Shown here: piece after piece, positions 1-6,246 of the stretch
How the letters are laid out: each line of letters starts with the position of its first letter
Position numbering within the stretch: position 1 is the stretch's first letter
NCBI GenBank assembly: GCA_031414595.1
Contig: JANNVX010000056.1
Coordinates: forward strand, 1-35,160
DNA: 35,160 bases
Reading direction: 5' to 3'
DNA from: Deinococcales bacterium
GTDB taxonomy: Bacteria; Deinococcota; Deinococci; Deinococcales; JAAFIG01
Made by a program: the position numbers and the translations under genes
Notes under the pieces: generated by a model
Databases searched by the model: none
Told to the model about the DNA's origin: nothing
What the model saw: the letters and a program-made list of their open reading frames with translations, nothing else

Positions 1-143
1 GGACGTGTTGCGGAATACGAAGTGGTATTGCTCTGATTGGTTTATGGAGATTGCTTGTGGTTTGCATAACCTTCGCTGTGCTTTTCGCAAACGGGCTTTG
101 CGGAAATCGAGCTAGTTTCTTATTTCCGATAACGTCTATTAAA

Positions 144-227
144 AGGAATCGGAGGGATTTGAACCCTCGAGACATCAGTCTTTCTTCTTTAGCAAAGAAG
201 TGCAATAAACCACTCTGCCACGATTCC
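144..227 (-). tRNA. tRNA-Ser(GCT), duplicate copy without encoded CCA
   Basis: Identical to 949-1032. GGAATCG/CGATTCC acceptor, CTTCT-TTGCTAA-AGAAG anticodon arm, long variable arm; followed by TTT rather than CCA. Confidence 0.8.
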
Positions 228-229
228 AT

Positions 230-347
230 TGGCGAGTCTGACAGGATTTGAACCTGCAACAATACGTGTTGGAGACGTACTTTTTGCCCCTTAAAGCAGC
301 ACCTGACGGGCTTGGGGCGCTCCCTTAGCTAGTCGGGATTCAGACTC
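230..347 (-). pseudogene. tRNA-Trp(CCA)-like duplicate carrying a ~40-nt insertion between the D arm and anticodon arm
   Basis: Matches 1035-1112 except that 42 nt (280-321) replace 2 nt, plus one D-loop substitution. Confidence 0.7.
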
Positions 348-569
348 TTAAAATTCAAGATTTACAACACTATCAGCAGCAAAATCAGAATTCTTGACTT
401 TCTTAATCAATTCAGAAAGGCGCATCGAAACCGCCATTGAAAACACCTGATGTTCTTCGCCACTTTGTTCTCGAGCCACCGAGATTGGAACACCAGAAAC
501 AACCACCTGCACACCTTTTTTGGTGATGTAAGTGTAATCAATTCTAGTTTCGGGAGCAATCACATTCAT
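348..569 (-). CDS. Putative antitoxin, YgiT-type zinc-finger-like fold but lacking cysteines
   Basis: 73 aa ORF with GAGG RBS; VVVSGVP motif resembles YgiT-type xxIxxVP; lies directly downstream of a DUF4258-like ORF. Confidence 0.5.
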   Translation of the reverse strand: MNVIAPETRIDYTYITKKGVQVVVSGVPISVAREQSGEEHQVFSMAVSMRLSELIKKVKNSDFAADSVVNLEF

Positions 570-597
570 GTTGACCTCGAGTATACGACTAAAGCAC

Positions 598-921
598 TTA
601 AATTGTATGAACTGTAATCACAATGTAGGAATCAAAAAACGAAACCTTGACGCGAATCCAACGCTTATCGGGAATCTGATACTCGAAATTAATTCCTGCC
701 ATACGAGATAAATTATTATTTGGCAAATCTTTAGAAACTGCTTTACCAAACAAAATAGCTTCAAACAAGGCAACTGGTGCAATATCTTCATCTTGGGCTG
801 CTACAAATGCGTGAGGATGAATTTTGATTTCCTCGCGCCATAGTGCAGTATGAATAAAATCCAATTCCCACTCGAGAATATCCGAAGTTGAAAAATCGAA
901 ACCAGTGGGTAAATCAGGCAC
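598..921 (-). CDS. DUF4258-like putative RNase toxin
   Basis: 107 aa; H-P-H-A...I....L.EAI..G and C-terminal IVITVH pattern typical of DUF4258 proteins; TATACT 5 nt before the GTG start. Confidence 0.6.
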   Translation of the reverse strand: MPDLPTGFDFSTSDILEWELDFIHTALWREEIKIHPHAFVAAQDEDIAPVALFEAILFGKAVSKDLPNNNLSRMAGINFEYQIPDKRWIRVKVSFFDSYIVITVHTI

Positions 922-945
922 AAGAAAGTATACATTGAAAATTTT

Positions 946-1032
946 TGGAGGAATCGGAGGGATTTGAACCCTCGAGACATCAGTCTTTCTTCTTTAGCAA
1001 AGAAGTGCAATAAACCACTCTGCCACGATTCC
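946..1032 (-). tRNA. tRNA-Ser(GCT)
   Basis: Cloverleaf with anticodon loop TT-GCT-AA, long variable arm, GGTTCAAATCC T arm, encoded CCA. Confidence 0.9.
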
Positions 1033-1034
1033 AT

Positions 1035-1112
1035 TGGCGAGTCTGACAGGATTTGAACCTGCAACAATACGTGTTGGAGACGTAGACCCTTAGCCAGTCG
1101 GGATTCAGACTC
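1035..1112 (-). tRNA. tRNA-Trp(CCA), atypical D arm
   Basis: GAGTCTG/CAGACTC acceptor, TACGT-CTCCAAC-ACGTA anticodon arm, G73, encoded CCA; A instead of U at position 8. Confidence 0.8.
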
Positions 1113-1117
1113 AAAAG

Positions 1118-1198
1118 AGGAAAGCAAGGGAATCGAACCCTTGAAGCATAAGCCCAGCCGTTTTCAAAACGGTGTCCTCGACCCACCGGACGCTTTCC
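1118..1198 (-). tRNA. tRNA-Ser(TGA), atypical D arm, no encoded CCA
   Basis: GGAAAGC/GCTTTCC acceptor, anticodon loop TT-TGA-AA, variable arm, GGTTCGATTCC T arm. Confidence 0.75.
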
Positions 1199-1200
1199 AT

Positions 1201-1273
1201 TGGAGACCTCGCTCGGAATTGAACCGAGACTCTTTGGTTTGCAGCCAAAGCCCATGCCGTCTGGCTCGAGATC
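1201..1273 (-). tRNA. tRNA-Cys(GCA)
   Basis: TTTGG-CTGCAAA-CCAAA anticodon arm, U73, encoded CCA; weak D arm. Confidence 0.8.
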
Positions 1274-1280
1274 AAGATTT

Positions 1281-1493
1281 TGGTGGAGGAGGCGGGACTC
1301 GAACCCGCATATTCGGCACTGTCGGTTTTAGGAAACCCGCTTCCTGCGGCAAGTTACAAACCCACTCGAGATTCGTCGTCTCGAGTCGCCAGCCAGTGCA
1401 TCCGGAACCTCCGACGGTTTTTGACCTGTGCCGCAGCTATTACGCTTACCGAATCCAAGTTTTGCGGTGCGCTCCCGTTTGCGCTACTCCCCC
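1281..1493 (-). ncRNA. 213-nt tRNA(Ala)-like RNA with a large structured insertion (possible miniature tmRNA)
   Basis: GGGGGAG/CTCCTCC acceptor with G3:U70, A73 and CCA; GCGC-AAACGGGA-GCGC D arm; GCGGG-TTCGAGT-CCCGC T arm; ~160 nt between the D and T arms. Confidence 0.75.
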
Positions 1494-1504
1494 ATGTGAG
1501 ATTT

Positions 1505-1582
1505 TGGTGTTCCTTCAGGGACTCGAACCCAGACTTTTCAGTGTCTTAAGCACTGCGCCTCTACCAATTGGGCTAAAGAAAC
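1505..1582 (-). tRNA. tRNA-Leu(TAA), short variable region
   Basis: CAGTG-CTTAAGA-CACTG anticodon arm, A73, CCA. Confidence 0.85.
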
Positions 1583-1583
1583 A

Positions 1584-1659
1584 TGGTGCGTTCGGTAGGA
1601 GTCGAACCTACAGATTCTCGGGTTTGAACCGAACGAGTTTGCCATTCCTCTACAAACGC
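1584..1659 (-). tRNA. tRNA-Leu(CAA), short variable region
   Basis: TTCGG-TTCAAAC-CCGAG anticodon arm, A73, CCA. Confidence 0.85.
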
Positions 1660-1686
1660 AAATCTCGAGGATTACCCAAGAATTTT

Positions 1687-1762
1687 TGGTACGCCGAGCG
1701 GGACTCGAACCCGCAAGCTCCTCGTTCTAAGCGAGGTGAGTTTGCCATTTCTCTATCAGCGC
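1687..1762 (-). tRNA. tRNA-Leu(TAG), short variable region
   Basis: CCTCG-CTTAGAA-CGAGG anticodon arm, A73, CCA. Confidence 0.85.
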
Positions 1763-1788
1763 TTAATTCCCTCGAGACTCGAGGATTA

Positions 1789-1865
1789 TGGTGTCCATGA
1801 CGGGATTTGAACCCGTAAATTCTTGTCGCTCAAACAAGTGACTTTGCCAATTTGTCTACACGGAT
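1789..1865 (-). tRNA. tRNA-Leu(GAG), short variable region
   Basis: CTTGT-TTGAGCG-ACAAG anticodon arm, A1:C72 mismatch, A73, CCA. Confidence 0.8.
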
Positions 1866-1902
1866 ACAGTGGAAATTTGGTGCATGAACCCATATGATTC
1901 AT

Positions 1903-1978
1903 TGGTGCAGATTGGGAGAATCGAACTCCCGTTATTTGCATGGCAAGCAAGCGTCTTCAACCACTAGACGAAATCTGC
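1903..1978 (-). tRNA. tRNA-Gly(GCC)
   Basis: GCAGATT/AATCTGC acceptor, loop TT-GCC-AT, CCA; discriminator A73 (bacterial Gly usually U73). Confidence 0.85.
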
Positions 1979-1984
1979 AAAAAG

Positions 1985-2056
1985 CCTCTGCTTGTGTGGC
2001 AATTCTTTAAGCGGTGAATTGCCCTTTGCTCCCGCTCGAGCAAAGAAAAACAGAGG
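1985..2056 (-). ncRNA. Unknown three-way-junction RNA element with complementary hairpin loops
   Basis: Closing stem 1985-1990/2051-2056; 8-bp hairpins at 1998-2023 and 2024-2045; loops contain AGCGG and CCGCT. Confidence 0.5.
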
Positions 2057-2076
2057 TGAAGACCCAAAAGGGTCTG

Positions 2077-2150
2077 TGGAGCAGAAGGACAGGTTTCGCA
2101 CCTGCGTCTCGCCTCGGAAAAGGCGCATCTTGCATTTAGAAGACTTCTGC
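2077..2150 (-). tRNA. tRNA-Gly(TCC)-like, 6-nt anticodon loop, GTGC T loop
   Basis: GCAGAAG/CTTCTGC acceptor, U73, CCA; CGCCT-TTTCCG-AGGCG anticodon arm; T arm GCAGG-TGCGAAA-CCTGT. Confidence 0.65.
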
Positions 2151-2151
2151 A

Positions 2152-2227
2152 TGGAGCAGTCAGTGGGAATCGCACCCACATTCTCTGGTTGGAAGCCAGA
2201 CATCTTAAGCTATTGGACGATGACTGC
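2152..2227 (-). tRNA. tRNA-Gly(TCC), GTGC T loop
   Basis: TCTGG-CTTCCAA-CCAGA anticodon arm, T arm GTGGG-TGCGATT-CCCAC, U73, CCA. Confidence 0.85.
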
Positions 2228-2228
2228 A

Positions 2229-2306
2229 TGGAGGTTTTGACAGGAATCGAACCTGCGTTCTTTTGCTTACAAGGCAAGCGCTCGAGCCAACATGAGCTTC
2301 AAAACC
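2229..2306 (-). tRNA. tRNA-Thr(TGT)
   Basis: GGTTTTG/CAAAACC acceptor, loop CT-TGT-AA, CCA. Confidence 0.9.
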
Positions 2307-2349
2307 ATATGGCGTTGCTATTTTAGAACTATTTTAGTATCATTTATCC

Positions 2350-2754
2350 ATGAATCAGATTCTTAATATCCAATTAATTTCAGGTGATCAAATTTTATTA
2401 AGACTCGAGTATCCAACGACTATTTCTCGAGAGCTATTACTTGAGCGTATCCCGCTTCTTTTCGGAGAAGTTAAAGGAGTAAATACTATGAAAGTACCAA
2501 CTGGTGTCTCAAAATCATATATGCAACTTGCTCGTTTTCTTTTACAACAAGAAAATAATGAAATAAAAATTACTTTTTCGCAGCTTGAAAAGGAGTGGAA
2601 TCAACCGTTGCCACGTTCTGCTCGAGTGCATAGAGCTTGGTGGGGAAACACGGAAAATCCGACACATGTCCATGCGAGTTCTTGGATGCTAACTGGTTGG
2701 AAAGTAGAAACAATTGATCTCGAGAATGAGGTTGTCGAATTTATTAGGAACTAA
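2350..2754 (+). CDS. Small hypothetical protein, antisense to the tRNA array; C-terminal domain with TF..LE.....LP.SA..H..WW.N motif (DUF7662-like)
   Basis: 134 aa, AT-rich ORF; TATCAT 6 nt before ATG; an alternative start at MKVPTG has a GGAG RBS. Confidence 0.7.
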   Translation: MNQILNIQLISGDQILLRLEYPTTISRELLLERIPLLFGEVKGVNTMKVPTGVSKSYMQLARFLLQQENNEIKITFSQLEKEWNQPLPRSARVHRAWWGNTENPTHVHASSWMLTGWKVETIDLENEVVEFIRN

Positions 2755-2768
2755 AAAAGTTTTGAAAA

Positions 2769-2844
2769 TGGTGGGTTTCCTCGGGTTTGAACCGAGACCG
2801 CGCAGCTTAAAAGGCTGCTGCTCTACCAGTTGAGCTAAAAACCC
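2769..2844 (-). tRNA. tRNA-Lys(TTT)
   Basis: Canonical cloverleaf, GCAGC-CTTTTAA-GCTGC anticodon arm, CCA. Confidence 0.92.
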
Positions 2845-2870
2845 ATGTGGGACAAAATCAGTCCCATGTT

Positions 2871-2945
2871 TGGTGATCTCGAGGAGAATTGAACTCCTTC
2901 CTGTCGGGTGAAAACCGCGTATCCTGACCATTAGACGACGAGACC
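2871..2945 (-). tRNA. tRNA-Glu(TTC)
   Basis: GGTCTCG/CGAGATC acceptor, loop TT-TTC-AC, CCA; imperfect anticodon stem. Confidence 0.82.
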
Positions 2946-2948
2946 ATT

Positions 2949-3024
2949 TGGAAGGGAAACTGAGAGTCGAACTCAGATTTGACAGCTTCAAAGACTGTTG
3001 CGTTACCAATTACGCTATTTCCCT
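2949..3024 (-). tRNA. tRNA-Gln(TTG)
   Basis: ACAGT-CTTTGAA-GCTGT anticodon arm, CCA. Confidence 0.88.
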
Positions 3025-3035
3025 GTATTTCGGAA

Positions 3036-3119
3036 TCTCGAGCAAGTGATGTATCACATACAGGATTTGAACCTGCTCTCCGTGAGGATAACCAATAACT
3101 GTGATACTTCGGCTCGAGA
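3036..3119 (-). ncRNA. Candidate Y RNA (Ro60/Rsr-binding stem plus tRNA-like T arm)
   Basis: TCTCGAGC-C-GAAG...CACTT-GCTCGAGA terminal stem containing the GNCGAAG motif; inner stem GTATCACA/TGTGATAC; T arm GCAGG-TTCAAAT-CCTGT; no full anticodon arm. Confidence 0.65.
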
Positions 3120-3122
3120 AAA

Positions 3123-3422
3123 TTAAATGCTGACTGGTGCATAAATGCGAACTTCTGTTTCGAGGCGTGAGGCTAATTTTCGGCGTTCGATTTCAAGGTC
3201 AAAATTGGTTTGTAAGTTCAACCAGAAACGTTCTGAATTGCCAAAGAATCGTGCAAGTCGCAAGGCGGTTTCGGTACTAATGCCGCGTTTGCCAAGCACA
3301 ATTTCGTTAATACGACGGGCTGGCACACTGATATTTTGTGCAAGTCGGTATTGGCTAAGTCCAAGTGGCTCGAGAAATTCGTACTGTAGTATTTCGCCCG
3401 GGTGAACTGGTTCAAGTTTCAT
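3123..3422 (-). CDS. higA: HigA/VapI-family antitoxin (HTH XRE), no adjacent toxin
   Basis: HPGEIL..EFL.PLGLSQY.LA....V...RINEIV.GKR.IS..TALRL.RFFG.S..FWLNLQ signature. Confidence 0.9.
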   Translation of the reverse strand: MKLEPVHPGEILQYEFLEPLGLSQYRLAQNISVPARRINEIVLGKRGISTETALRLARFFGNSERFWLNLQTNFDLEIERRKLASRLETEVRIYAPVSI

Positions 3423-3438
3423 GCTTACCTATTGTACT

Positions 3439-3514
3439 TGGTCGAGAGACTTGGAATTGAACCAAGACTTACTGTGCTTCAGACAATCGTGCAGACCCAC
3501 TACACCATCTCTCG
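3439..3514 (-). tRNA. tRNA-Phe(GAA)
   Basis: CGAGAGA/TCTCTCG acceptor, ATTGT-CTGAAGC-ACAGT anticodon arm, CCA. Confidence 0.85.
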
Positions 3515-3516
3515 TT

Positions 3517-3589
3517 TGGGTGCGGTGGTGGGAGTTGAACCCACCAGCCGAGCTTATGAGACTCGGCGCATCACCGGACGCACACCGCA
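3517..3589 (-). tRNA. tRNA with CAT anticodon (Met, or Ile2 if lysidinylated), reduced D arm
   Basis: TGCGGTG/CACCGCA acceptor, loop CT-CAT-AA, CCA. Confidence 0.8.
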
Positions 3590-3617
3590 TTAAAGGTTGA
3601 CGCGCACACCGCATCAT

Positions 3618-3691
3618 TGGTCGAAGATGATGGAATCGAACCATCGTTGCCTGCATATCAGACAGGTGTCCTACCATTGGACGAATCTTCG
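3618..3691 (-). tRNA. tRNA-Ile(GAT)
   Basis: CCTGT-CTGATAT-GCAGG anticodon arm, CCA. Confidence 0.88.
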
Positions 3692-3748
3692 TTTCTCCTC
3701 GAGTTATTAGGAGGTAATACTCGAGGGGTGCGCTATTTTTTAGCGCTC

Positions 3749-3824
3749 TGGTCGGTGCGGTAGGGGTCGAACCTACGACTTCTGCTTTGTAAGAGCAGCA
3801 CTCATACCACTGAGTTACGCGCCG
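3749..3824 (-). tRNA. tRNA-Val(TAC)
   Basis: CTGCT-CTTACAA-AGCAG anticodon arm, CCA. Confidence 0.92.
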
Positions 3825-3856
3825 TTAATCTCGAGAACAGCAAAATTCTCGAGATA

Positions 3857-3931
3857 TGGTGGAAAAGATCGGATTTGAACCGATAACCTTCGCTGTGCAA
3901 AAGCGCTGCTCTCCCGTTGAGCTACTATCCC
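3857..3931 (-). tRNA. tRNA-Ala(TGC)
   Basis: G3:U70, loop TT-TGC-AC, A73, CCA. Confidence 0.9.
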
Positions 3932-3974
3932 ATGTGTGAACTGGTTACTATCCCATGTGGGGGTTTAACCCCTT

Positions 3975-4051
3975 TGGTCGAGCGTGCAAGAATTGAACTT
4001 GCCTAATGTCCTGTGTCCAAAACAGGAGACCCTCCTTGAGTCTGACGCTCG
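3975..4051 (-). tRNA. tRNA-Pro(TGG)
   Basis: C1:G72, A73, CCTGT-TTTGGAC-ACAGG anticodon arm, CCA. Confidence 0.85.
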
Positions 4052-4059
4052 AGAATTTA

Positions 4060-4133
4060 AGATTCGGATAGGAATTGAACCTATGACCTTTGGCTTCGCA
4101 TACCAATGCTCGTTTCCACTGAGCTACCGAATC
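4060..4133 (-). tRNA. tRNA-Arg(GCG), no encoded CCA
   Basis: GATTCGG/CCGAATC acceptor, TTGGT-ATGCGAA-GCCAA anticodon arm. Confidence 0.8.
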
Positions 4134-4141
4134 ATGATTAT

Positions 4142-4218
4142 TGGTGAACCGAGCAGGACTTGAACCTGCGGCTTCCATGTTAGAAGCATGGCACTCTGTT
4201 CCACTGAGTTATCGGTTC
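4142..4218 (-). tRNA. tRNA-Arg(TCT)
   Basis: CCATG-CTTCTAA-CATGG anticodon arm, CCA. Confidence 0.92.
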
Positions 4219-4225
4219 TTAAAGT

Positions 4226-4301
4226 TGGAGAATCGGGCAGGACTCGAACCCGCAACATCCACGTTCGACGCGTGGCGCTCTATCCTTTGAACTACCGATT
4301 C
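4226..4301 (-). tRNA. tRNA-Arg(TCG), G33
   Basis: CCACG-CGTCGAA-CGTGG anticodon arm, CCA. Confidence 0.82.
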
Positions 4302-4331
4302 AGGTACTCGTGTGAACTACCGATTCAAGTT

Positions 4332-4407
4332 TGGTAGCCGCGAACAAGTGGATTCTCGAGGGGCGTAATCATTGGAAGTGATAACCCTCGAGATTCGGCT
4401 CGCAGTT
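4332..4407 (-). ncRNA. Second candidate Y RNA
   Basis: CTGCGAGC-C-GAA...CCACTT-GTTCGCGG stem with the same motif as 3036-3119; inner stem TCTCGAGGG/CCCTCGAGA; ends in ACCA. Confidence 0.6.
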
Positions 4408-4408
4408 T

Positions 4409-4483
4409 TGGCGGTTCTAACGGGAATCGAACCCGTATTGCCTGAGAGACAGTCAAGCATCGTAGCCGTTGGAACATAGAACC
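4409..4483 (-). tRNA. tRNA-Asp(GTC)
   Basis: CTTGA-CTGTCTC-TCAGG anticodon arm, G73, CCA. Confidence 0.87.
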
Positions 4484-4511
4484 ATTTTCATGGTGTCAAA
4501 CACAGACCCTA

Positions 4512-4586
4512 TGGCTGACTCGGTAGGGATCGAACCTACGACAACCTGATTAACAGTCAGGCACTCTACCTCTGAGTCACGAGTCA
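4512..4586 (-). tRNA. tRNA-Asn(GTT)
   Basis: CCTGA-CTGTTAA-TCAGG anticodon arm, G73, CCA. Confidence 0.92.
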
Positions 4587-4591
4587 ATAAA

Positions 4592-4673
4592 TGGATACGG
4601 AAGGATTTGAACCTCCATTGTCTTTTAGACGCTTGGGCTACAACCAAGTGCAATACCGTTCTGCCACATACCC
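4592..4673 (-). tRNA. tRNA-Tyr(GTA), no encoded CCA
   Basis: CTTGG-TTGTAGC-CCAAG anticodon arm, variable arm GTCT-AAA-AGAC, A73. Confidence 0.87.
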
Positions 4674-4707
4674 ATGTGGATGACTGGTATGTCATCCGTA
4701 AAGCTCG

Positions 4708-4909
4708 AGGTGTACGCCCCAAGCGTGTATCGTCTTTAAGAATAATCGTGATTACACCGTACAGTGCAACAGCATTCACGTTTTCTAAGGGAGAAAAATT
4801 TGGCATTCGAGTTGTCAAGGAATTCACTCAGAGACGAGTTCTAGTCGTCGCAAGCAGTTTGGGTGTTGGTGCTTCTCGAGGACACGAATTCTCGAGTTGG
4901 CGTACACCT
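4708..4909 (-). ncRNA. Unknown ~200-nt multi-branched structured RNA
   Basis: Perfect 11-bp closing stem AGGTGTACGCC/GGCGTACACCT enclosing several hairpins; fills the gap between tRNA-His and tRNA-Tyr. Confidence 0.55.
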
Positions 4910-4910
4910 G

Positions 4911-4986
4911 TGGGTTCATCGTCGGGAATCGCACCCGAGTTTCTAGGGTCACAACCTAGCGTCTTGTCTATTGGACGACAACGAAC
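4911..4986 (-). tRNA. tRNA-His(GTG), first gene of the array
   Basis: G-1:C73 pair, CTAGG-TTGTGAC-CCTAG anticodon arm, GTGC-type T loop, CCA. Confidence 0.88.
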
Positions 4987-5012
4987 ACAGTTTTTGGTTT
5001 GTTGCGGGGTAC

Positions 5013-5049
5013 AAAAAATTTGAGCCTATCCATTGCGGGTAGGCTCAAA
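5013..5049 (-). terminator. Intrinsic terminator/attenuator upstream of the tRNA array
   Basis: TTTGAGCCTACCC-GCAAT-GGATAGGCTCAAA followed by TTTTTT on the minus strand. Confidence 0.75.
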
Positions 5050-5068
5050 AGAGTTTGCCTGTTCCGCC

Positions 5069-5215
5069 TTACCTGATTTGATTTTCCAAAATACTCGAGA
5101 ATCTACGACCTTGCCATGTCCCTAAACCTAAATCTGAATTATGTTTCAGATTGGCACAATCGCTTGCCCGCATCGGGCGTGGTGCGTATTGTTTTGTGGG
5201 GTGAGTAAAGTTCAT
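5069..5215 (-). CDS. Putative 48-aa leader peptide (MNFTHPTKQYAPRPMRASDCANLKHNSDLGLGTWQGRRFSSILENQIR)
   Basis: Not in the ORF track; translated by hand. GGAGA RBS before ATG; stop ~20 nt before the terminator hairpin. Confidence 0.55.
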   Translation of the reverse strand: MNFTHPTKQYAPRPMRASDCANLKHNSDLGLGTWQGRRFSSILENQIR

Positions 5216-5273
5216 ATATTTCTCCGTTTGAGGTTTCTAGTCTCGAGGGTGAGGTGTTGTTTCCTCGAGCAGC

Positions 5274-5303
5274 ATAGTACCTACTGCATTCAAGTCTTGT
5301 CAT
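5274..5303 (-). promoter_or_regulatory. Putative sigma70 promoter of the leader/tRNA array
   Basis: ATGACA-18 nt-TACTAT on the minus strand, ~60 nt upstream of the leader ATG. Confidence 0.4.
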
Positions 5304-5510
5304 GCGTAGATGTGCTTAGTGTGGTACTAAGCCATTTGACGCGTGAGGGCTGCTCCCAAAAACCAATCCACCTGTCTATTTTGACATCTCCCATGCCTAT
5401 CTTGACCTCACAGCAGCACCTGTCTTGACCACATACGCGCACCTATCGGGCGTGGTCGCTTCGGGCTTGGGTCGCTAAAAGCAGAGAATTTCGGTCTTTC
5501 TCACCGAAAC

Positions 5511-5539
5511 AAAAAGACGAAGCCTAAGCCTCGTCTTTT
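5511..5539 (-). terminator. Terminator after rplA
   Basis: AAAAGACGA...TCGTCTTTT inverted repeat with a T-tract, 18 nt past the rplA stop. Confidence 0.7.
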
Positions 5540-5556
5540 ACTATCTATTTTAAATT

Positions 5557-6246
5557 TTAGCGCAAGCCAGCCGTGGTCACTTTGACACTTGGTCCCATCG
5601 TGGTGGTCAAGTACAAACTCTTGACAAACACGCCTTTGGCTGCGCCAGGCTTGGCTGCCTCGAGTGCCACTTGAAAAGCCTTGAGGTTTTCCTCGAGCTT
5701 TGCCGCGTCAAACGATGCCTTACCAATTGGAGCGTGAACCACACCAGTCTTGTCGTTGCGGAATTCGATTTGACCGGCTTTGAGGCTTTTGACCAAATCG
5801 CCAATGTTCAAGCCAACTGTGCCGCTTTTTGGGTTTGGCAACAAACCACGAGGTCCAAGAATACGACCCAGTTTAGAACCAATGGCTGCCATCATGTCTG
5901 GGGTAGCAACCACCGCATCAAAGTCCAACCAACCATCAGCAATTTTAGCGATTAACTCGTCGCCGCCCACAAAATCTGCGCCAGCGCCTTCGGCGGCTGG
6001 AATACCATCGCCTTTGGTCAATGCCAGAACACGAACAGTGCGACCCGTACCATGTGGTAGGGCAACCGTGCCACGCACATTCTGGTCGGACTTACGTGGG
6101 TCAATACCCAAGCGGGCATGGACTTCAACGGTTTCGTCAAACTTGGCACTGGCAAGGGTTTTAACAAGGGTAGTGGCTTCGGTAGCATCGTAGTTTTTGC
6201 TCGAGTCCACTTTGGCGGTCAATAATTTATAACGCTTGCCGCTCAT
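5557..6246 (-). CDS. rplA: 50S ribosomal protein L1 (true start MSGKRY at 6246)
   Basis: [36 protein letters not shown] and TTMGP motifs; ATGA overlap with the rplK stop. Confidence 0.98.

Follow-up and report, generated by a model that had tools for sequence, protein, structure and literature searches.

Features of the locus

The window analysed here is the whole 35,160-base contig C56 (JANNVX010000056.1) of a Deinococcales genome, G000 (assembly GCA_031414595.1). One end of it carries a dense array of tRNA genes on the minus strand (Table 1). Among these genes lie two elements that the initial annotation proposed as Ro-binding RNAs, at 3036-3119 and at 4332-4407, which are here called Y1 and Y2, respectively. 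Y2, the subject of this report, directly adjoins tRNA-Asp(GUC). We read it as a Y RNA gene, that is, as encoding a member of the class of RNAs that docks onto the Ro60 protein (Rsr in bacteria), of the long-hairpin Yrn2 type, and give this reading a probability of about 0.78.

Table 1. Coordinates of Y2, its parts and neighbouring features in the window
Feature	Position	Strand	Remarks
Y2, probable Y RNA gene of Yrn2 type	4332..4407	-	bounds of the initial annotation; match of model R1 at 4334-4409
Closing stem of Y2, 5' strand CUGCGAGC	4398..4405	-	8 bp, pairs with GUUCGCGG at 4338-4345
Bulged C, then GAA	4394..4397	-	CGAA core of the published GNCGAA(N0-1)G Ro60/Rsr-recognition motif; invariant in 7/7 orthologues
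Upper stem of Y2, 5' strand UCUCGAGGG	4385..4393	-	9 bp, pairs with CCCUCGAGA at 4354-4362; contains CTCGAG
UUAU	4381..4384	-	fits YUAY; directly 3' of upper stem; nearly all relatives keep GGUUAUC
Apical hairpin AUCA-CUUCCAA-UGAU	4368..4382	-	4-bp stem, small pyrimidine-rich 7-nt loop; varies among orthologues
CACUU, unpaired	4346..4350	-	3' strand, opposite the CGAA side; part of conserved CACUUG; ACUUG invariant in 7/7 orthologues
3' tail CUACCA	4332..4337	-	ACCA in 3/7 orthologues (G000, G005, G006)
Y1, putative sister Y RNA	3032..3123	-	3036-3119 in the initial annotation; R1 score 25.4 bits
Accessory tRNA array	144..4985	-	27 tRNAs by ARAGORN (144-4674) and two Rfam tRNA matches (233-303, 4914-4985); holds Y1 and Y2
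tRNA-Asp(GUC)	4409..4483	-	ARAGORN, Rfam; CCA encoded; the Y2 stem begins 3 nt downstream
tRNA-Arg(UCG)	4226..4301	-	ARAGORN; next gene downstream, 36 nt beyond the end of the Y2 stem
Multi-copy repeat at contig end	1..140		blastn; 4 nt past the last tRNA-Ser(GCU), at the rsr position of congeners

Fold and shared motifs of Y2 and Y1

On the minus strand Y2 reads AACUGCGAGCCGAAUCUCGAGGGUUAUCACUUCCAAUGAUUACGCCCCUCGAGAAUCCACUUGUUCGCGGCUACCA, with the 3' end ...GGCUACCA. It folds into one long hairpin whose 8+2+9 pairs have no mismatch among them, the two middle pairs (G-C/A-U) standing beside an A-A mismatch between the bulged C and the upper stem. The fold energy is -28.1 kcal/mol, compared with -14.8 +/- 2.7 kcal/mol for shuffled sequences (z -4.90), and none of 200 shuffles is as good. 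The plus strand has a fold of similar quality (-30.0 kcal/mol, z -3.74); the strand is assigned as minus because a covariance model, R1, built from seven Y2 orthologues, scores 93.4 bits there against 15.3 bits on the plus strand. The element is a single hairpin with neither T- nor D-arm, and five of the seven letters of its loop CUUCCAA are pyrimidines. Y2 is not called as a tRNA by ARAGORN, nor by the Rfam tRNA model RF00005 at its gathering score or at E<=10, and a tRNA with missing arms was rejected on this ground.

Y1 shares the predicted docking stem of Y2 and adds to it a T-arm-like hairpin, GCAGG-UUCAAAU-CCUGU. Common to both are CGAGCCGAA near the 5' end and CACUUG(U/C)UCG near the 3' end, and the corresponding 3' sequence of Y1 is CACUUGCUCG. 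The 3' strand of vertebrate Y RNAs also reads CACUUG. The initial annotation had reported the shared pair of motifs as GAGCCGAA and CACTTG(C/T)TCG, and both are indeed present in the two elements on the minus strand. It had also noted that the stems above and below the motifs differ and still pair. This holds as well: the stems of Y1 (UCUCGAGC/GCUCGAGA closing, GUAUCACA/UGUGAUAC upper) are unlike those of Y2, and its fold energy of -29.1 kcal/mol (3036-3119; z -3.88) is, as for Y2, equalled by none of 200 shuffles. Orthologues of Y1 lie between tRNA-Phe and tRNA-Gln in two congeners, G005 (L004 394-475) and G006 (L013 8947-9029). With GCCGAAG, Y1 fits the GNCGAA(N0-1)G motif in full, and despite its T-arm it has no match to the Rfam YrlA model (RF02553) at E<=10.

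Conservation of Y2 in homologous arrays

A DNA search of 41 related genomes recovered full-length Y2 orthologues from five congeners of G000. This brings the total to seven copies in six genomes including G000, all of which fold alike. In their alignment 91.3% of cells are paired (98.2% in the closing stem), against 35-49% when the partners are slid along one another. The docking motif reads GCCGAAUC in all seven, which fits the first six positions of GNCGAA(N0-1)G. That motif was derived from YrlA RNAs, and the conserved YUAY is likewise described for YrlA RNAs (PMC4201824, section 6 for the motif and figure 2 legend for YUAY).

R1 extends the family well beyond these close relatives. At E<=0.01 it gives 36 matches, spread over 22 loci (289,988 bases). 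Without exception they share the strand with the tRNA genes and with rsr, the gene for Rsr; Y2 itself has the top score of all orthologues. The loci of seven Deinococcus species have a single match each, at 0.3-2.9 kb upstream of rsr, namely those of D. rufus, D. pimensis, D. yunweiensis, D. aquatilis, D. marmoris, D. alpinitundrae and D. hohokamensis. Across the alignment of the 36 relatives, both sides have changed in 19 of the 23 pairs, including 5 of 8 in the closing stem and 10 of 11 in the upper-stem helix. Here 89.5% of cells are paired, compared with 65.6% after shuffling (0/500 reach the observed value) and 33-44% with slid partners. Since these 36 sequences were fitted to R1, the alignment favours pairing, but the stems can still be read by eye. 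The closing stem, for example, occurs as CUCGAGC/GCUCGAG, CCGGGC/GCCCGG and UUGGGC/GCCCAC, the upper stems are wholly different, and the letters that stay the same are the single-stranded GCCGAA, GGUUAUC and CACUUG. The conserved motif that the initial annotation had postulated from the two copies in the window is thus found in homologous arrays by a model made from seven orthologues, and the arrays of the relatives end with rsr.

When R1 was run on the whole genomes of 19 family members, with 150 of about 400-1,700 candidates per genome scored, 11 of the 12 matches at E<=0.001 fell on array contigs. Within G000 it finds Y1 and Y2 plus one further match (C67:7829-7911, 20.8 bits), which was rejected as a third family member: it is a CTCGAG artefact whose closing stem is mismatched. 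A strict pattern scan (7/7 closing pairs and A[CT]TT) missed most of the distant relatives, for which the covariance model was needed. Among 149 Rfam matches at gathering score on 10 related loci there is no YrlA (RF02553) row.

Relation to Yrn2 and other described Y RNAs

Among 363 genomes of the order, one (G092) matches the published probe for Yrn2 of Deinococcus radiodurans. At the matching locus (L106, 3,029 bases) R1 gives a modest score of 18.2 bits (E 4.4e-4), and the dot-bracket layout of the sequence GGCUGGGCCGAAGAAUCUGGAUUAUUUACUUUCCCAGUAG...UUCCAGGUUCAUCCCUUGCCCAGCC is that of Y2 (-30.9 kcal/mol, z -5.0). The next gene is tRNA-Asp(GUC), followed by the complement of the published Yrn1 probe. 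The R1 match, the common layout and the tRNA-Asp neighbour are the reasons why Y2 is best filed as a Yrn2-type RNA. A tRNA-Asp gene also lies within 21 nt of Y2 in six of the seven orthologues.

The likeness extends to the published description of Yrn2, an RNA from the same phylum (PMC4201824). Yrn2 has a long terminal stem carrying the Ro-binding sequences, is made as part of a polycistronic precursor with tRNA-Asp and Yrn1, and requires Rsr for its accumulation in D. radiodurans (PMC4201824). Y2 resembles it in its 8-bp terminal stem, the bulged C, GAA, the 9-bp upper stem, UUAU, the small pyrimidine-rich tip and the (C)CUUG of the 3' side, and it adjoins tRNA-Asp(GUC) directly on the rsr strand. 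The loop of the G003 orthologue, CUUUCCC, even contains the Yrn2 tip UUUCCC. The two differ in that Y2 lies downstream of tRNA-Asp whereas Yrn2 lies upstream, in that Y2 reads GCCGAAU where Yrn2 reads GCCGAAG (as does L106, a full fit to GNCGAA(N0-1)G), and in the stems, which in Y2 have been rebuilt around CTCGAG. While Yrn2 belongs to a compact Yrn2-tRNA-Yrn1 group, Y2 sits in a 27-tRNA array several kb from the position that rsr occupies in its congeners, and rsr was not found in its own assembly. Rsr binding and Rsr dependence are established for Yrn2 alone of the two (PMC4201824). The word Yrn2 does not occur in four of the five supplementary files of that paper; a supplementary table lists YrlA-type matches for two Deinococcus species.

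Other Y RNAs are more distant. YrlA (RF02553), like Y2, carries CGAA for docking close to its 5' end and YUAY beyond the stem, and it is encoded with rsr (PMC4201824), as are Y2 orthologues of congeners, but it has an internal tRNA-like domain with D-arm and T-arm where Y2 holds just a 4-bp hairpin. YrlB of Salmonella Typhimurium and Mycobacterium smegmatis, compared by its description, likewise accompanies a tRNA-like Y RNA as a second RNA of simpler build; the M. smegmatis RNA has a possible T-arm and Y2 has none. The ends of vertebrate Y RNAs (RF00019) also form a helix that contains a bulged C, and their 5' motif GGUCCGA is contacted by Ro60 (PMC4201824); their transcription and context are different. 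Yrl1 and Yrl2 of Thermus phage phiLo, whose hosts belong to the same phylum, are Y RNA-like hairpins with CGAA that are encoded upstream of a phage Ro60 gene and bind its product (PMC12135203). They belong to a phage locus, the passages of that paper used here describe no tRNA array, and this comparison too is one of descriptions.

Evidence against the assignment and the missing rsr gene

Several observations weigh against Y2 being a Y RNA. Among the seven close orthologues both sides have changed in only 2 of 23 pairs, a thin covariation that is explained by their close relationship. The final G of GNCGAA(N0-1)G is absent from Y2 in all seven. Neither YrlA (RF02553) nor Y_RNA (RF00019) of Rfam matches 4332-4407, even at E<=10. 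In these scans the gathering score was applied to the whole window and E<=10 to 2900-5100, and they otherwise gave tRNA and chance rows; the sole RF02553 rows in 2900-5100 have 22 and 17 bits, against a gathering score of 69 bits, and lie on tRNA genes. In the three congeners that have both genes on one contig, the Y2 orthologue has the strand of rsr and precedes it by 4.3 kb (G003), 5.4 kb (G006) and 7.0 kb (G007), farther than the 4 kb of the 2014 survey described below. Finally, in the G000 assembly (94.15% complete, 120 contigs) the Pfam TROVE domain has no match, and tblastn with the Rsr protein of G006 gives nothing (best E 1.2). The absence of rsr counts against the assignment because Yrn2 needs Rsr to accumulate in D. 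radiodurans (PMC4201824).

TROVE matches are present in 10 of the 41 genomes searched, including five of the seven congeners. In the congeners they lie on the array contigs and on the array strand, directly after the last tRNA-Ser(GCU) in the loci where the two were examined, and the G006 protein has the TROVE and Ro60-vWA domains. In G000 the contig ends at this very position in a repeat, the same 134-144 nt of which are found by blastn at 22 ends of 20 other G000 contigs. The rsr gene of G000 either lies beyond this multi-copy element on a piece that was not binned, or has been lost.

Should it have been lost, through insertion of a mobile element or a deletion after the last tRNA of the array, Y1 and Y2 would be orphan Y RNAs, recent leftovers or RNAs taken over by another partner. 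The absence of rsr from a 94%-complete assembly speaks for such a loss, as does the contig end 4 nt after tRNA-Ser(GCU), given that rsr of G006 starts about 0.5 kb after that tRNA. The genes beyond rsr in G006 are found mid-contig elsewhere in G000 (C106, C98), and two congeners, G002 and G005 (82% and 84% complete), have no TROVE match, although G005 has the array and Y2. Both RNAs of G000 are nevertheless intact, Y2 with every stem pair matched and the highest score among its orthologues. The assembly is in 120 contigs and incomplete, and binning easily misses a short rsr contig bounded by repeats; the rsr contig of G004 has 4,347 bases. We therefore regard an orphan state as unlikely, though as the most serious of the alternatives.

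The apical loop and the ACCA end

The initial annotation had observed that the tip ATCA-CTTCCAA-TGAT carries the 7-nt loop of tRNA-Gly(TCC) and that the 3' end reads ACCA. Both statements are correct, and CUUCCAA is identical letter for letter to the anticodon loop of the tRNA-Gly(UCC) of the array. From this it had suggested an anticodon mimic: the tip would imitate the tRNA-Gly(UCC) anticodon stem-loop and ACCA the end of a tRNA, making Y2 a decoy or adaptor for an enzyme that targets anticodons. Neither likeness is conserved. The loop is that of tRNA-Gly(UCC) in two of the seven orthologues, that of G000 and one of the two in G007; elsewhere it reads CUUUUAA (G001, G006), CUUUGAA (G005), CUUUGGA (the second G007 copy) and CUUUCCC (G003), and three of the seven have no closed 7-nt loop. 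The 3' ACCA is likewise confined to a minority (Table 1) and is separated from the stem by two extra bases. The 4-pair stem of the tip has nothing in common with the anticodon stem of tRNA-Gly, so that a recent copying of that arm into Y2 was also considered and rejected, and neither ARAGORN nor the Rfam tRNA model recognises Y2.

Certain features do lend the idea some appeal. All orthologue loops keep the CUU start and five of seven fit CUUNNAA, among them CUUUUAA and CUUUGAA, the loops of tRNA-Lys(UUU) and tRNA-Gln(UUG) in the array of the window. Another class of paralogues has CAAAA-CUUCCAA-UUUUG and AUCAA-CUUUUAA-UUGAU with 5-bp stems, and an anticodon arm is drawn for Yrn1 (PMC4201824, section 6). 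However, of the 16 sequences that CUUNNAA allows, about 6 by our count occur as true anticodon loops in this array, so once a loop has this form an exact match says little. Mimicry of tRNA-Gly is accordingly improbable, and the proposed role as a nuclease decoy is not supported. Conserved in the tip are the CUU start and a pyrimidine-rich loop, as in the published description of this type of Y RNA. Of the proposal of two Ro-binding RNAs with different effector modules, the second Y RNA, the common predicted docking stem and the T-arm of Y1 stand, but the module of Y2 is a plain hairpin.

A wider version of the idea takes the array, the Y RNAs and rsr together as a movable island for spare tRNAs and surveillance. 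Within the CUU...AA frame the middle letters differ between close relatives (CUUCCAA, CUUUUAA, CUUUGAA, CUUUGGA), and such tips might act as bait for nucleases or modification enzymes that target anticodons, or as sensors of them, coupling tRNA damage to Rsr-dependent RNA decay. We consider this a long shot.

Chance hairpins and the CTCGAG background

The palindrome CTCGAG is 24 times over-represented in the 4.49-Mb genome, with 23,235 sites against about 970 expected, or one roughly every 193 bases. It supplies six of the nine upper-stem pairs of Y2 and most of the closing stem of Y1, so the stems alone are weak evidence. Other palindromes are nearly absent: against about 1,943 expected on both strands, GAGCTC occurs 12, GTCGAC 52 and CTGCAG 102 times. 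The initial annotation had named chance pairing of CTCGAG as a possible explanation of the similarity between Y1 and Y2. GAGCCGAA alone occurs 427 times in the genome, but followed by CACTTG[CT]TCG within 20-120 nt on the same strand it occurs exactly twice, at Y1 and Y2, where about 0.23 occurrences are expected by an estimate from genome counts.

That Y2 is no gene at all, but a chance CTCGAG hairpin or a decayed tRNA fragment between tRNA genes, is very improbable and already largely refuted: the palindrome's share in the upper stem, the equally good fold of the opposite strand, the false R1 match on C67 that CTCGAG produces and the duplicated tRNA pieces nearby (4287-4301, repeated at 4313-4327) would favour it, but the parts of Y2 that are conserved are precisely those outside CTCGAG (GCCGAA, UUAU, CACUUG and the closing stem), its Deinococcus relatives pair with other stem sequences, for example GGCUGGGC/GCCCAGCC in L106, and the two-motif combination is found just twice in the genome.

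Proposed biogenesis and function

As a Y RNA of Yrn2 type, Y2 could be produced in the manner of the Yrn2-tRNA-Asp-Yrn1 precursor. The array would be transcribed as a single precursor, and Y2 would be freed by the maturation of its neighbours, with the 3' processing of tRNA-Asp 3 bases upstream and RNase P cleavage at tRNA-Arg 36 bases downstream, after which its ends would be trimmed back to the stem. The CGAA/CACUUG helix is predicted to bind Rsr, and the bound protein would protect the terminal helix of Y2. By analogy to Yrn1 with polynucleotide phosphorylase, the variable tip may recruit or exclude another factor, and such a variable inner module could give Rsr a second partner or specificity in the surveillance of structured RNAs or tRNAs under stress.

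On this reading Y2 is one more Y RNA in a family known since 2000-2014 and not a new kind of RNA. The useful part is its setting, in which Y RNAs are scattered through a complete, divergent second set of tRNA genes that is closed by rsr. The 2014 survey sought Y RNAs within 4 kb of rsr and by design excluded overlaps with tandem tRNA genes (PMC4201824). Y RNAs farther away or overlapping such genes have for this reason probably been under-counted.

Association of tRNA arrays with Ro60 genes

In the uncultured Deinococcales family to which these genomes belong, each genome has two to about five Y RNA genes among the genes of the second tRNA set, with rsr at its close. The pairing recurs elsewhere. 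Of 80 rsr loci drawn from many phyla (L024-L103), 54 have tRNA genes in the same orientation next to rsr, and 13 have at least ten of them; rsr loci with at least ten are found in Actinomycetota, Gemmatimonadota, Sericytochromatia and Deinococcus. In Streptomyces phage BoomerJR (L107) a Ro-like gene is embedded in a series of 16 tRNA genes; immediately upstream of it are two for tRNA-Asp(GUC). Among archaea, a TROVE-domain gene is reported for 20 of 29 tRNA clusters (PMC6333295). The array of the window resembles published tRNA array units in having at least 20 tRNA genes at a density of at least 2 per kb and in forming a redundant second set (PMC4758250; PMC6333295). The terms Y RNA, TROVE and Ro60 have no occurrence in the papers on bacterial tRNA arrays PMC4758250 and PMC5966550, and in the literature searched we found no paper that places Y RNAs inside such arrays. 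The recurrent association of tRNA arrays with Ro60 offers a concrete handle on the dealings of bacterial Ro60 with tRNAs.

Some rsr loci carry tRNA-like RNAs of another shape. Upstream of rsr in G009 (L016 3190-3640, minus strand) there are two with acceptor, D-arm and T-arm features and an internal GAGCCGAA...GGGUUAUC. Tracing one of them showed the CUUG strand ahead of the CGAA strand, which makes the docking helix appear circularly permuted. The Rfam tRNA model also gives matches of 120-134 nt beside rsr in L015 (6528-6650), L022 (3294-3413), L033 (6265-6398) and L037 (5696-5829). The tRNA-like RNAs of these five loci may be Yrn1-type RNAs.

Composition and possible mobility of the array

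The array is a redundant second tRNA set. G000 has 68 tRNA genes, 27 in the array and 41 elsewhere, and the 41 alone cover all twenty amino acids. Array tRNAs share on average 64% identity with same-anticodon copies elsewhere in the genome (n=24), and their G+C content is 51% compared with 58%. The array genes are separated by spacers of 1-60 nt, and CCA is encoded in 23 of the 27. Similarity to the arrays of G006 (L013) and G003 (L014) stops near position 5340, about 350 bases upstream of tRNA-His. The flank in G000 is rplA-rplK-nusG, and the genes that flank the array in G006 and G003 are found on other G000 contigs. Because similarity ends at about 5340 and the flanking genes differ between genomes, the unit of array, Y RNAs and rsr behaves as an island, one that occupies different chromosomal positions in these genomes.

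Two metatranscriptome runs with small shares (0.07 and 0.05) were available as assembled contigs, which are uninformative on expression. Contigs of run X19 touch 151-169, 1504-1530, 2805-2837 and 2869-3024, and those of run X20 touch 945-987, 3618-3703 and 4627-4716. No contig from either run covers any part of 4302-4488, which for contigs speaks neither for nor against expression. A promoter scan of 1-5600 was equally uninformative, with 6 promoter-like sites against 5.6 expected and terminator-like sites that are mostly tRNA T-arms.

The array shows several small rearrangements. The spacer just upstream of tRNA-Arg(UCG) holds a short direct repeat of about the initial 15 bases of that gene, and the same is seen for tRNA-Ala (about 3920-3960). 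Positions 144-279 and 949-1084 are an exact 136-nt duplication, comprising tRNA-Ser(GCU) and part of tRNA-Trp, around an insert of about 670 bases with two small minus-strand open reading frames, of which the one scanned (598-921) has no Pfam match. Two protein genes lie inside the array, an HTH_3 gene at 3123-3422 on the minus strand and a DUF7662 gene at 2350-2754 on the plus strand. In DNA contigs of another sample the HTH gene is missing, position 3118 being joined to 3432 and 3023 to 3439, and in G006 tRNA-Thr and tRNA-Lys are adjacent; for these reasons both protein genes look like insertions.

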